DNA from: a virus | Reading direction: 5' to 3' (one strand) | Length of the DNA: 64,000 bases | IMG/VR virus record: IMGVR_UViG_3300042731_008053 | Shown: piece by piece, positions 13,665 through 55,689 of the stretch | Layout of the letters: every line of letters starts with the position of its first letter | Numbering within the stretch: the first letter of the stretch is position 1 | Program-made: the position numbers and the translations under genes | The notes under the pieces: model-generated | Databases searched by the model: none | Seen by the model: the letters and a program-made list of their open reading frames with translations, nothing else | What the model was told of the DNA's origin: nothing

Positions 13665-14225
13665 ATGCTCGTTCACGCTCTGACTGTCTTCGTGTACCTG
13701 TCCGCTAACGGGGGTGTCGCGACAGCTCCTCCCAAGCCGTATCGCGTTACGGCCACACAGCCGGCGCCCCATCGTGTCGGCACACCACTCAGCGGTCGCT
13801 ATGTACAGACCTGTGAGGCGACGATTTTCTGTTACAAGGGCGATCCCTGGTGTGGCGGCGCAACGCCGTATTTGATGCGTCGCGTTCGTCCTACGGACGT
13901 CGGCGCTGCGCATCGGACGCTGCCGTACGGCACGAAGATCCGTATTACTAACCATCGGACAAAGCTCTCGACAGAAGCGATCATTATCGATCGGGGTCCC
14001 TTCGGGCGCTTGACGAAGCGAGGCGGCTGGTACAACGGCATCGGCTTCTACCTCAAACGTTTACGCGCACGTAAGCCAATACCCACCTCAGGTTGGCGCG
14101 GTTGTTTGGACATCACGCCACGCGTGGGACGTCAAATCCGCCATAACGGTAAAGAGGACGTCACGCTTGAAGTGATCCGGTGGCCTAGACGGCGCCGCAA
14201 ACCCGTCAAAAAGCCTAATACATGA
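13665..14225 (+). CDS. secreted RlpA-like double-psi beta-barrel lytic transglycosylase
   Basis: Signal peptide MLVHALTVFVYLSANGGVATA. AAHRTLPYGTKIRITNHRT...AIIIDRGPF matches the RlpA/DPBB signature. RBS AAAGGAA. Confidence 0.7.
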   Translation: MLVHALTVFVYLSANGGVATAPPKPYRVTATQPAPHRVGTPLSGRYVQTCEATIFCYKGDPWCGGATPYLMRRVRPTDVGAAHRTLPYGTKIRITNHRTKLSTEAIIIDRGPFGRLTKRGGWYNGIGFYLKRLRARKPIPTSGWRGCLDITPRVGRQIRHNGKEDVTLEVIRWPRRRRKPVKKPNT

Positions 14226-14239
14226 TCGCAGCTGCGATC
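14224..14239. promoter_or_regulatory. Operator-like palindrome GATCGCAGCTGCGATC (copy 1 of 4)
   Basis: Perfect 16-bp palindrome 17 bp upstream of ATG 14256, followed by TAGAAT. Confidence 0.5.
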
Positions 14240-14255
14240 GGGTAGAATACAGACG

Positions 14256-14936
14256 ATGCCTGCTGTTCAAGGAAAGACCATTCTTATCGTCGGCGACTCG
14301 CTCTCGTCTCAGAGCAGTAACGGCACTCATACGTACTCTCCCGATCCGAACGTAAACCGTTACGGCTCGCCCGGCGACTTCTTTGGAGCTGCACTCGCGC
14401 GAGCGGGAGCTAGCGTCGTCATCAACGCCAAGGTAGGCCGCTCCGCTCACAGCTTTTTTACACACGAGGGTGGCAGCCAAATCCTGACCAGTTTGGCGCA
14501 GTACGATCCCGACGTTGTCTTTGTCATGTTGGGCACCAACGACCTGGGGCTCGATCTAGGTGTAGATGCGACTCAGATGGCCCGCATTCGAGACGCATTT
14601 CCCAAGGCCGACGTTTGGGGCATCGGGCCGCCCACGCTCGCGCAGGCAACAGAAGCGGCGGCCGTCGCACAGATGATGCAGGGCGTGTTCGGCAATTTCG
14701 TCGATCTGCGTAGCTACACGCGCGACATGGCGCCCGGGTCTGCCTACCGAACCCCTGACGGCGTCCACTTCACAGCAACGGGTGCAAGGCTTGTTGGAGA
14801 TCGTCTCGCTCAAGTGCTCGTAACCAAAAACCATGTTGGCCTAAAGATTGGTGCAGCAGCACTCGCGTTCACAGCACTGGGGCTCGGTCTTTCGTTCATC
14901 ATCGCACGCCGAAATGAGTTACATGAGCGCCAATGA
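14256..14936 (+). CDS. SGNH/GDSL hydrolase with C-terminal membrane anchor
   Basis: ILIVGDSLS (block I), MLGTNDLG (block III), DGVHFT (block V), C-terminal TM GLKIGAAALAFTALGLGLSFII. Confidence 0.75.
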   Translation: MPAVQGKTILIVGDSLSSQSSNGTHTYSPDPNVNRYGSPGDFFGAALARAGASVVINAKVGRSAHSFFTHEGGSQILTSLAQYDPDVVFVMLGTNDLGLDLGVDATQMARIRDAFPKADVWGIGPPTLAQATEAAAVAQMMQGVFGNFVDLRSYTRDMAPGSAYRTPDGVHFTATGARLVGDRLAQVLVTKNHVGLKIGAAALAFTALGLGLSFIIARRNELHERQ

Positions 14937-15258
14937 CGTCATCGCTGACGTATTTGCAGGAAAAGCGAACTACGTCTACAAACAACTGACAGTTACCGCC
15001 GCTGGTCGGGACTACACAATCCGTGAAGCGTTCGCCATTGATGCACAGGGATCGCTGCTGCCCATCATGGGCGACATCTTCCCGCACTGGATCGATCTCG
15101 ACAACTTCGATCAGATTACCGATGGTGAGCTGGCCTGGAATTGTTTGTGTCGGGATTGGGGCCGGGAAAACAACCTGGATATTCGGCAAGCGAATGTCGC
15201 CCTCATCGCAAAAGTGCGGGACGAAGGCGACGAAATCCCGTTGAGGGGCGTCTCATAG
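14914..15258 (+). CDS. hypothetical protein
   Basis: Internal ATG of ORF 14848-15258 overlapping the upstream stop. Confidence 0.4.
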   Translation: MSYMSANDVIADVFAGKANYVYKQLTVTAAGRDYTIREAFAIDAQGSLLPIMGDIFPHWIDLDNFDQITDGELAWNCLCRDWGRENNLDIRQANVALIAKVRDEGDEIPLRGVS

Positions 15259-15639
15259 ATGATGCGTCCTGCTGCCGGTATTTTGCTCGTTCGAGGCGAC
15301 GGTAAGATCTTTTTGATGCGCCGTTCTGCCAACGTTCCTGTGCCCAATCATTGGAACGTTCCGGGCGGTGGAATCGAGGCCGGCGAGACGGCGTTTGTCG
15401 CGGCAGCGCGGGAGTTCCGCGAAGAAGCGGGTAGCCTGCCACGTGCCCGTCCCATCGGAATGCACACGATTGGCCCCTACACGACCTTCGTCGCTGCCAT
15501 CTCGATGCACGAGGCCGCGCACTGGTATCCCCGGATGAACGCAGAGAGCAATGACTGGGGCTGGTTTTCCATGGACCGTCTGCCGGTGCCCCTGCATCCT
15601 GGTTTGGCCGACTTTTTCGCCCGCGTTCAGTTGTCATAG
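15259..15639 (+). CDS. NUDIX hydrolase
   Basis: Nudix box GGGIEAGETAFVAAAREFREEAG (GX5EX7REUXEEXGU). Confidence 0.8.
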   Translation: MMRPAAGILLVRGDGKIFLMRRSANVPVPNHWNVPGGGIEAGETAFVAAAREFREEAGSLPRARPIGMHTIGPYTTFVAAISMHEAAHWYPRMNAESNDWGWFSMDRLPVPLHPGLADFFARVQLS

Positions 15640-54163: not shown

Positions 54164-54497
54164 CGTCCTCCTCCGGGGCTGGACCCGTGTAATCAAAAGC
54201 CCGCAAATGAATTGCGGCTACAAGAGGGGTCCACACGATCGAGCACAATGCGATCACGAATGGTGTTACCCAAAGGCGTCCGGGGAGACCTAAAAAGGGC
54301 AGATCACGCCACCATCCGATCGAAAAACCGATAGCCAGGCCGTACCAGAAGCCAGAGCACGCTGTGCACATCATGAAGTTGTCGAGCCATTTTGGGTACC
54401 TCGACCATAACCATTGGGTGATCTTGGCGCGCACTCCCAGGTAGTACAGCGACGTCGTCAGGAGAGCGTAAAGGACAGGAACAGCGAAAACACTCAT
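54141..54497 (-). CDS. small membrane protein with CxxC (DUF1360-like, tentative)
   Basis: 3 TM segments; MCTACSGFWYGLAIGF. Confidence 0.45.
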   Translation of the reverse strand: MSVFAVPVLYALLTTSLYYLGVRAKITQWLWSRYPKWLDNFMMCTACSGFWYGLAIGFSIGWWRDLPFLGLPGRLWVTPFVIALCSIVWTPLVAAIHLRAFDYTGPAPEEDDGSTEKE

Positions 54498-55174
54498 CGG
54501 GCTGATCGCTTTCTCCGCCGTGAGCCTTGCTGTTTGGGACGACGGTCCAGACGCCGACGGAACTTGGCCATCTTCTTTTCGATCATTTGTTGTTTGAGTC
54601 CTGCCGTATGATCGATAAGAAGGCCACCGTCGAGGTGTTCGATCTCATGGCAGAGCGCACGCGCGAGAAATCCGTAGGCTTTGATCTCGAAAGCGTCACC
54701 GGCTGGTGTACATGCGCCAACATGAACCCAAACCGGACGCGGCACACGTACCCATACTTTGGGAAACGACAAGCAGCCTTCTCGATCCAGGACAACGTCC
54801 TCGGAGCGGTCCATGATTTTGGGATTGATCAACCCAAACGGGTAACCTTGGGTGAGATTATCTGCGACGTCGCCGGAGACGACCACGACGCGCTCGGTGA
54901 TGCCCACCTGAGGTGCGGCGATGGCGGCGCCGTCATGTCGATCGAGGGCTGCTGCTAGAAAGCGCAGGCCTTGGCGCAGTGTGCTGTGGTCGTCATTGCC
55001 AAAGGCGTCGGACTCGACAGACGTGCATACCTTGCGCAGCCGCGCGTCTCCAAAGACAAGCACGGCCGGGACCGCCTCAGGCGGCAACGCGCCCCAACCG
55101 TAGATCGGCTCGGGCGTCCCCATGATCAGTTTTGAGCGTGGCAGGGGGTTTGTGTTGGCGTCGTCGAGACTCAC
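54494..55174 (-). CDS. def: peptide deformylase
   Basis: Motifs GAAIAAPQVG (motif I), EGCLSFP (motif II), HEIEHLDGGL (motif III). About 40-aa N-terminal extension. Confidence 0.85.
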   Translation of the reverse strand: MSLDDANTNPLPRSKLIMGTPEPIYGWGALPPEAVPAVLVFGDARLRKVCTSVESDAFGNDDHSTLRQGLRFLAAALDRHDGAAIAAPQVGITERVVVVSGDVADNLTQGYPFGLINPKIMDRSEDVVLDREGCLSFPKVWVRVPRPVWVHVGACTPAGDAFEIKAYGFLARALCHEIEHLDGGLLIDHTAGLKQQMIEKKMAKFRRRLDRRPKQQGSRRRKRSAR

Positions 55175-55602
55175 GTCTTGATCTTCTCCCCGCTGTCCAC
55201 GAGGTCACGCAGCTCGTCGGGAAGCTTGTCAAGAGGGTGTCCGGCCGTTGCGAGAGAGTGCCCGTCACGCCCCGTCCAGCCGTCACACAGGTACTGGCAG
55301 TGGACGAAGTCGGTGTTTACCTTACCTCGCATACACAGTCCTGCCGTCCCGGCGCGCATGAGTTTGTTCATCATTTGGAAGCGGGCGTCTTCTTCTTTGG
55401 TAGCAGGATTTTCCTGATCGCCGAGACGTGTCAGTGCGACAGCGCCTTGCTCGATTAAGGCCGCTACCTCTTGCTTACGGGTCTCTTCCCAACGTTTTTG
55501 GGCCAGGGCGCCGTTCTCAAAACTCTTACAATTCCAACACCCTCGACCGCGTTCGACGGTACGGTTGGCAGGTAGGATCACCCGGCCGGCTTTAGGCTTC
55601 AT
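55171..55602 (-). CDS. hypothetical protein
   Basis: ORF track; CWNC...C..C. Confidence 0.45.
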   Translation of the reverse strand: MKPKAGRVILPANRTVERGRGCWNCKSFENGALAQKRWEETRKQEVAALIEQGAVALTRLGDQENPATKEEDARFQMMNKLMRAGTAGLCMRGKVNTDFVHCQYLCDGWTGRDGHSLATAGHPLDKLPDELRDLVDSGEKIKT

Positions 55603-55673
55603 TGATCACCTCCGTGATCGGATTATCACGACAGCATAACGTATCGCAAACGAATTACCGATCGTCGTCTGTC

Positions 55674-55689
55674 GATCGCAGCAGCGATC
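55674..55689. promoter_or_regulatory. Operator-like palindrome GATCGCAGCAGCGATC (copy 4 of 4)
   Basis: GATCGC-N4-GCGATC about 50 bp upstream of ATG 55740; an extra GATCGC half-site at about 55712. Confidence 0.45.

Follow-up and report, generated by a model that had tools for sequence, protein, structure and literature searches.

What is the function of a 16-base palindrome that recurs just upstream of gene starts in the genome of an uncultured virus? The question arises from a 64 000-nucleotide stretch of the IMG/VR virus record IMGVR_UViG_3300042731_008053 (the whole stretch is called the window below), in which a first-pass annotation, made from the letters alone, had pointed to four copies of a GATCGC-N4-GCGATC palindrome as operators of a dimeric regulator governing a small regulon, possibly of late or structural genes. 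Our analysis supports the operator: the palindrome is probably a multi-copy DNA site for a sequence-specific, dimeric transcription regulator that would be specific to this clade and encoded by the phage lineage itself, and this regulator is most likely a repressor. Three lines of evidence carry this reading, namely the position of the palindromes at predicted promoters, their conservation upstream of orthologous genes and a symmetric change of both arms in one relative. We found no support for late or structural genes as its targets.

Copies of the palindrome in the window

Scanning the window for the 16-base palindrome (GATCGCNNNNGCGATC) recovered the four copies of the first-pass annotation, with the same sequences, at 14224, 19910, 27253 and 55674 (sites 1 to 4; Table 1), and none of 100 dinucleotide shuffles contained a single match. 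All four copies are intergenic, and they are separated by 16, 17, 23 and 50 bases from the start codons at 14256, 19943, 27292 and 55740, respectively. The palindromes of sites 1 and 2 overlap, by their first two bases, the TGA that ends the preceding gene; on Logan contigs carrying the same DNA, independent gene calls also place these two sites between genes. The exact copies have a 3′ G in common (GCGATCG, four of four), the half-site centres are 11 bp apart and the consensus of the predicted operator is YGATCGC-N4-GCGATCR.

Allowing up to two mismatches yielded 18 matches in the window, against 5.8 expected. Three of the additional imperfect matches, which had been missed at first, are intergenic and adjoin gene starts: GATCACCTCCGTGATC at 55604, GATCGCATCTGTGATT at 55711 and GATTACAGATGCGATC at 61999, the last standing before a gene for a 138-amino acid (aa) protein (61561–61977, minus strand). 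Shuffle counts, both in the window and in the clade described below, rule out a chance or compositional artefact.

Each arm of the palindrome contains one GATC, which makes two per site and not two per arm as first stated. GATC lies within the predicted binding site, a feature from which the first-pass annotation had suggested sensitivity to Dam methylation. The tetranucleotide is 1.9-fold over-represented in the window (502 occurrences vs. 272 ± 17), GATCGC alone is only about twofold enriched, and GATC-N8-GATC occurs 10 times where about four are predicted from the density of GATC. Other short words depart from expectation in the opposite direction: TTAA is strongly avoided (18 vs. about 99 expected) and CTAG and AATT reach about 0.6 of expectation. 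The cyanobacterial HIP1 element (GCGATCGC) was rejected as an identity of the motif, having just three copies in the 64 kb (4224, 7696 and 41077), approximately the number expected from base composition.

Sites 1 to 3 adjoin predicted leaderless promoters

We called 101 genes in the window with a self-trained codon model. A Shine–Dalgarno core is present 6–8 nt before the start codon in 35 of them, and in 11 of the 101 a TANNNT hexamer ends 6–7 nt before the start codon, where about 1.1 such genes are expected; the first-pass annotation had not remarked on this spacing. Six to seven nucleotides being the normal distance from a −10 box to the transcription start, leaderless mRNAs are predicted for these 11 genes, and the TANNNT boxes are, as judged from this excess, real −10 signals. 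Genes of this type include those starting at 19019, 26440 and 27781 on the plus strand and at 31613, 47241 and 49695 on the minus strand. The mixture of leaderless genes with genes led by a Shine–Dalgarno sequence (about a third) is a hint that leaderless mRNAs are in wide use in the host.

Such a box follows the palindrome at sites 1, 2 and 3 (Table 1), upstream of genes encoding an SGNH/GDSL esterase (14256–14936), a 388-aa protein (19943–21109) and a 156-aa protein (27292–27762). Among the hexamers proposed in the first-pass annotation, TAGAAT and TACAAT stand, and the third is better read as the extended −10 box TGaTATTGT than as GATATT. Relative to the predicted transcription starts, the palindromes are centred at about −24.5, −25.5 and −31.5 and cover the region of the −35 box and the spacer. 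No −35 box was found upstream of sites 1 to 3, and a sigma-70 consensus scan was empty at these sites; at all three, transcription is predicted to begin on the ATG or beside it, and the mRNAs would be leaderless. A promoter of the MerR type, in which the dyad sits between a recognisable −35 and a −10 box spaced 19–20 bp apart, was considered and rejected, since the window sites have no −35 hexamer upstream of them, though the centres (−24 to −26) are similar.

The layout is conserved upstream of orthologous genes

Among 5.8 billion proteins, just two homologues of the 388-aa protein were found, and both of their genes are preceded by the palindrome, as gTGATCGCAGACGCGATCGcgagTACAATggggtcATG in the related sequence L002 (43% protein identity; 9968–9983) and as aTGATCGTAGCTGCGATCAgacgTACAATggggcATG in L004 (53–56%; 522–537), with TACAAT and its spacing retained in both. 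L002 exhibits extensive synteny with the window, with 39–89% protein identity, and its SGNH orthologue follows GATCGCAGACACGATCAgcTACAATagggccATG at 366–381, the counterpart of site 1. The orthologues of the 138-aa gene behind the imperfect operator at 61999 are also preceded by the palindrome in L090 (14205), L091 (17352) and L093 (21838), with a TAG..T hexamer 6 nt after it and then the start codon. The operator of the 820-aa gene downstream of site 4, whose product has 47 homologues, is present in L092, L090, L091, L093, L094 and L095. The operator is thus kept upstream of orthologous genes though their proteins are just 34–70% identical.

We then counted matches to the relaxed pattern GATCRY-N4-RYGATC in a clade set of 12 sequences (246 kb). 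There are 60 such matches, against 0.5 expected, and 24 of the 60 stand in the full layout of palindrome, 2–11 nt, TAnnnT, 5–8 nt and ATG or GTG, which is found at 1.2% of random positions (p approximately 3e-30). The gap between palindrome and −10 box is mostly 3–6 nt, 6 nt being the commonest. Motif density is 1.1–6 per 10 kb in the clade and 0.15 per 10 kb in control loci, which comprise 719 kb of unrelated DNA fetched with the IF3 protein (scans with IF3 gave 84 loci, none of them syntenic). The first-pass annotation had reasoned that copies placed at random relative to genes, or mainly inside coding sequence, would speak against a regulon; all 25 strict copies (window, L002, L090, L091, L094 and L095, according to public gene calls), the four of the window among them, turned out to be intergenic. 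The regulon proposed there is supported, but it is not limited to the four genes: it extends across the clade and reaches 10 sites per 22 kb in the densest relative.

Two arrangements in the relatives are informative about the mode of action. In L091, the palindrome at 17352 lies between two divergent genes, each with a −10 box 5–6 nt away and a start codon 6–8 nt further. In L094, L095 and L093, which are more remote relatives, several copies are located downstream of a canonical promoter and upstream of the Shine–Dalgarno site; for instance, L094 carries TTGACA-17-TAGAGT at 9894–9922 and the palindrome at 9963, and the copies at 16818 and 19496 in L094 and at 17543 in L093 likewise follow a canonical promoter.

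Across copies, the sequence is invariant at 10 of the 12 arm positions, and at the inner pair changes in one arm (18) outnumber changes in both (5). L097, a relative further removed again (30% identity), has, instead of the GATCGC palindrome, five perfect copies of CGTCGC-N4-GCGACG; behind two of these stands tga, then TAGCCT or TAGTCT, with the ATG 6 nt later. Both arms have thus changed together and the layout has remained the same. L097 corresponds to positions 2249923–2271821 of CP070815.1, a 4.7-Mb record labelled as a Gemmatimonadota chromosome from a metagenome-assembled genome; this locus may be a prophage, and thereby a clue to the host, or an artefact of binning or assembly.

The divergent control region of the 820-aa gene

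Site 4 is indeed upstream of the 820-aa gene, as first described, but it is a distal site, centred about 58 bp upstream of the predicted transcription start, while the spacer of the promoter contains another copy, which is imperfect. The region separates the 820-aa gene (start 55740) from an operon on the minus strand (start 55602), and promoters are predicted in both directions (Table 1). This divergent control region is retained block by block in L092, L090, L091 and L093 (relatives of 46–70% identity). On the side of the 820-aa gene, the conserved blocks are the distal palindrome, a GAATTnnTTG box that contains the −35, TGATCGCA in the spacer, a TAAsTT −10 box and the ATG; TGATCGCA, the left half of the proximal imperfect operator, is kept in four relatives. 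The cgTGaTAnnn box of the minus-strand promoter is also kept in four relatives. The variant palindrome at 55604 is identical in L092 and absent from L090 and L091. The perfect distal site (−58) and the imperfect proximal site probably act together on the 820-aa gene, and the same region would control the minus-strand operon.

Table 1. Coordinates in the window of the palindromes, predicted promoter elements and candidate regulator gene.
Feature	Coordinates	Strand	Description
Operator copy 1	14224–14239	no strand	GATCGCAGCTGCGATC, perfect 16-bp palindrome; overlaps the TGA of gene 13665–14225
−10 box TAGAAT	14243–14248	+	3 nt after palindrome, 7 nt before ATG 14256
Operator copy 2	19910–19925	no strand	GATCGCAGCTGCGATC; overlaps the TGA of gene 19669–19911
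−10 box TACAAT	19931–19936	+	5 nt after palindrome, 6 nt before ATG 19943
Operator copy 3	27253–27268	no strand	GATCGCGTCTGCGATC
Extended −10 box TGaTATTGT	27277–27285	+	hexamer TATTGT 27280–27285, 11 nt after palindrome, 6 nt before ATG 27292
Candidate regulator, 130 aa	53771–54163	−	N-terminal Fis/NtrC-type helix-turn-helix (residues ~11–55), Lys-rich then acidic tail
Variant palindrome	55604–55619	no strand	GATCACCTCCGTGATC; over the predicted start and GGAGG ribosome site of minus-strand gene 55171–55602
Predicted promoter, minus-strand operon	55622–55649	−	TTGCGA, 16 bp, GATAAT (consensus scan)
Operator copy 4	55674–55689	no strand	GATCGCAGCAGCGATC; distal operator of the 820-aa gene
Predicted promoter, 820-aa gene	55703–55731	+	−35 TTGATT (55703–55708), 17-bp spacer, −10 TAAGTT (55726–55731), 8 nt to ATG 55740
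Proximal imperfect operator	55711–55726	no strand	GATCGCATCTGTGATT; within promoter spacer, touches −10
Imperfect operator	61999–62014	no strand	GATCGCATCTGTAATC (read on the minus strand); 6 nt upstream of TAGCCT (61987–61992), 21 nt from ATG 61977

A Fis/NtrC-type protein as candidate binder

The minus-strand operon that starts at this cluster of operators encodes four clade-conserved proteins beside the 820-aa gene (143, 118, 130 and 126 aa) and a peptide deformylase, orthologues of which are present only in L090 and L091. The 130-aa protein (53771–54163), one of the regulators suggested in the first-pass annotation, is by its conservation, Pfam matches and predicted fold the best candidate for the protein that binds the palindrome. 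Its first 55 residues are kept in every motif-bearing relative. In its family, HTH_8 matches five of six members and HTH_50 four of six, below cut-offs, with best E-values among the relatives of 3.7e-7 for HTH_50 and 5.9e-4 for HTH_8. AlphaFold2 models residues 11–55 as three helices, a long helix followed by a helix-turn-helix (HTH), with pLDDT above 90, and in a Foldseek search of the PDB it is most similar to NtrC4 and NtrC1 (their DNA-binding domains) and to Fis (target TM-scores 0.55–0.78). If this protein is the binder, its gene lies in an operon under its own control, and the operon would therefore be autoregulated.

All motif-bearing genomes retain [ST]-[ILV]-Arg at positions 33–35 and an S-x-[SN]-[FY]-L recognition helix. 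In L097, L106, L107 and L103, which are devoid of the GATCGC palindrome, the conserved Arg35 is replaced; the link between the loss of Arg35 and the loss of the palindrome is suggestive only.

The neighbours of the candidate were also considered. The 118-aa protein was ruled out as regulator, being a membrane protein. The 143-aa protein (55171–55602, minus strand) is encoded in all relatives by the first gene divergent from the 820-aa gene, and its invariant Cys22, Cys25, Cys90, His101 and Cys106 suggest a metal site; it has no similarity in PDB or Pfam, and a role as regulator is possible but without support.

An operator, an activator site or another element?

A regulator bound over the −35 and spacer region (centres −24 to −32) would exclude RNA polymerase, and at sites overlapping the stop codon of the preceding gene it would also block read-through from that gene. 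The palindrome at 17352 in L091 would lie outside both transcripts, and the element therefore acts on DNA and not on RNA; the location of window site 4 in a divergent region supports the same conclusion. Sites that cover the −35 and spacer at some promoters and lie downstream of the start at others fit a repressor and not a substitute for the −35 box. The 11-bp spacing of the half-sites fits an HTH dimer, and Fis/NtrC-type domains bind inverted repeats as dimers.

Several observations weigh against this reading or against the proposed binder. The gap of 3–6 nt to the −10 box is tighter than steric repression requires and tTGATC falls near the place of a −35 box, so that a positive or dual role is conceivable. 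Three relaxed matches are located in coding sequence, two of them in the minus-strand operon near the Fis-like gene (53439–53454 and 53700–53715 in the window) and one in L091 (8555–8570), in a membrane-protein gene just upstream of the HTH gene, with another relaxed copy at the equivalent place in L093 (9172–9187); these copies may be internal operators or chance matches. The 130-aa protein of the window scores below the Pfam gathering thresholds (18.4 vs. 27 bits for HTH_50 and 14.6 vs. 22 for HTH_8), and the Foldseek E-values are weak (0.1–1) because the domain is small. The association of Arg35 with the motif is confounded by phylogeny, since the relatives devoid of the motif are also the most distant. 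Finally, another DNA-binding protein could be the binder; an RHH-AP2 protein (41973–42587), conserved in L002, is a second candidate.

The best-surviving alternative is a positive-control site, at which an activator or a dual temporal switch would bind in place of the −35 box and recruit RNA polymerase to −10-only promoters, e.g., middle or late ones, and would repress where the site lies downstream. The window sites without any −35 box and the clustering of the gap at 3–6 nt agree with such a role, and at gaps of 4–6 nt the flank and arm together (tTGATC) fall 16–18 bp from the −10 box. In L091, a single palindrome would serve two divergent promoters, and promoters with a good TTGACA carry a downstream site instead, as expected for an early-to-later switch. 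However, known class II activator sites are centred at about −41.5, further from the start than the −24 to −32 seen here. The spacing to the −10 box ranges over 3–11 nt, a variation exceeding one third of a helical turn. The palindrome is absent from other leaderless −10-only promoters of the window (starts 19019, 26440 and 27781, and 31455 and 46894 on the minus strand), and there is therefore no general need for an activator site. The 820-aa gene, moreover, has a proper pair of −35 and −10 boxes with the imperfect site in the spacer, a typical repressor position. We consider a positive-control site unlikely.

A second alternative is a function in RNA, the palindrome folding into a hairpin within transcripts that read through it and serving as a terminator or insulator without a run of U, an RNase processing site or a stem stabilising mRNA ends. 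A short stem of 6–9 bp with a 4-nt loop is predicted (−9.6 to −17.4 kcal/mol), sites 1 and 2 overlap the preceding stop codon, the sites of L094 and L095 lie inside a predicted 5′ untranslated region, and some copies differ symmetrically in their arms (GATCGT...ACGATC, GATCAC...GTGATC and CGTCGC...GCGACG). The arm positions are nevertheless mostly fixed in sequence and not merely in their pairing, and changes in a single arm prevail over changes in both at the inner pair. The sense strand would also contain C–A mismatches in L002 (366) and L090 (17538, 21046 and 14205), the copies in divergent regions (L091 17352 and window 55674) would not be transcribed from the flanking promoters, and the z-scores are unremarkable in two of five folds. 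Taken together, these features make an RNA element very improbable. An intrinsic (rho-independent) terminator was rejected separately: a hairpin is possible, but no T-run follows any copy and none was called terminator-like.

The remaining alternative, a non-transcriptional DNA site (parS-like partition, packaging, replication, or a target of GATC methylation or restriction), would suit a 16-bp palindrome in multiple copies with two GATC each in a window rich in this tetranucleotide, but it can practically be set aside, as the tight link to −10 box and start codon and the conservation at orthologous promoters are unexpected for parS, pac or ori, a search of the window for a DNA methyltransferase gene was negative, and the variant of L097 keeps the same promoter layout without GATC. 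Among the relatives, L091 encodes an N6_N4_Mtase gene whose specificity is not assigned.

Comparison with known systems

One palindromic operator repeated at many promoters of a mobile element is known from the KorA and KorB operators of plasmid RK2 and from the inverted repeats bound by the phiC31 repressor. In both systems, the operators overlap or adjoin −35 and −10 boxes, and the gene of the regulator is itself inside the regulon. The operator sequences and protein families are different from those described here, where the promoters have a −10 box only and leaderless transcripts are predicted.

The repeats of actinobacteriophages are also comparable, in that one short motif is present in many, mostly intergenic copies throughout the genome and one phage protein is bound or predicted to bind (PMC4351075, PMC9283540). 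Neither these stoperators nor the other repeats share sequence or protein similarity with the window element. The stoperators of Cluster A phages (L5 gp71 type) are asymmetric, oriented with transcription (PMC9283540, PMC4351075) and bound by a monomer (PMC9283540), and membership of the window sites, which are symmetric palindromes, was rejected on this ground. Cluster O phages carry over 30 copies of a 17-bp dyad repeat, TGTTCGGNNNCCGAACA, whose function is not established; the repeats are mostly off promoters, one third are within coding sequence, and the predicted promoters of these phages are leaderless, with start sites on the first codon (PMC4351075). Unlike these repeats, the sites of the window and its clade are nearly all intergenic and fixed beside −10 boxes.

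The C proteins of restriction-modification systems are small HTH dimers acting on palindromic C-boxes just upstream of genes, and their distal and proximal sites, which give dual control (PMC2691842, PMC2275141), resemble the pair of sites at the 820-aa gene. C-box systems are single-locus circuits, with an Xre-type and not a Fis-type HTH and with unrelated box sequences.

The N-terminal 55 residues of the candidate regulator adopt, in the predicted structure, the same three-helix fold as the Fis and NtrC DNA-binding domains (PDB 4fth, 3e7l, 1ety and 3iv5). Unlike in Fis/NtrC activators, this domain is N-terminal and is followed by a disordered tail, first Lys-rich and then acidic; the candidate has neither the N-terminal arm of Fis nor a sigma-54 AAA+ module. 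Operators repeated across phage and plasmid genomes are well known, and the present element stands apart by its sequence, by its symmetry where the stoperators are concerned and by its tight coupling to the −10 box where the Cluster O repeats are concerned, in a lineage without a cultured member.

Genomic context

The window encodes a DnaG primase, the peptide deformylase mentioned above, a protein with peptidoglycan-binding and 3D domains and the GDSL/SGNH esterase; few of its proteins have any PHROG match, and no capsid or terminase gene was identified in it. The relatives retrieved with the 820-aa protein are contigs of 60–220 kb, several of them in IMG/VR, and we therefore treat the window as part of an uncultured large phage. 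A megablast search of the window against deposited phages and plasmids gave no match, nor did tblastn searches of 50 697 phage records with the 820-aa and 118-aa proteins or an exact 18-mer DNA search in IMG/VR. Searches for close relatives in IMG/VR with the 388-aa and 881-aa proteins, a metagenome scan with the 388-aa alignment, and Rfam and tRNA scans of the window returned nothing, and a search of the paper library for the motif found no relevant paper. The 881-aa protein (7489–10134) matches the shoulder domain of the major vault protein (5.5e-26) as well as a vault repeat (7.6e-11), an unusual content for a phage-like element.

Of the proteins in this region, the best conserved are those of the genes 22677–23099 and 25880–26425, which are 87% and 81% identical to L002 genes that are identified by Pfam as IF3 (IF3_N, IF3_C) and a release factor (PCRF, RF-1). 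IF3 discriminates against leaderless initiation, which makes a phage-encoded copy worth noting where many genes are predicted to be leaderless.

A non-coding element of about 125–140 nt (47262–47405 in the window, 20058–20190 in L002 and 213–345 in L090, all on the minus strand) is far better conserved than the neighbouring proteins and includes an identical 32-mer, ctcgaccacccatcgggggcgcccacacagac. It precedes non-homologous genes, is predicted to form a long G+C-rich terminal hairpin and has no match in Rfam. Its counterparts in L002 and L090 are directly preceded by a GATCGC palindrome and a conserved TTATTTGCGT box; the window has no palindrome there. It probably represents either a gene for a small RNA or a 5′ leader, and in the relatives it would be a member of the regulon.

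Implications for gene control in large phages

The palindrome and the Fis-like protein, which consists of little else than a DNA-binding domain, might together form a genome-wide switch in an uncultured clade of phages of 90–220 kb. One symmetric site would replace the −35 box and could drive, or gate, a pair of leaderless promoters placed back to back; canonical early promoters would be shut by the same protein from downstream sites, and operator and recognition helix would have co-evolved, GATCGC changing to CGTCGC as Arg35 and helix residues change. All of these parts holding together is doubtful, and we put the switch forward tentatively. If true, it would represent a previously undescribed family of global regulators in huge phages, and it might also serve for silencing in a lifestyle of the temperate or plasmid-like kind.

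Next to nothing is known about how genes are scheduled in uncultured large phages, and the clade described here offers a conserved cis-element with a defined consensus. Its target promoters can be listed, including the operon region of the candidate regulator and, in relatives, that of the non-coding RNA-like element; the list of candidate binders is short and testable in vitro without culturing the phage, and the range of likely hosts is narrowed by the −10-only promoters with their predicted leaderless transcripts. The control site is conventional in kind, and its value would lie in annotating and opening up this clade rather than in a new principle.

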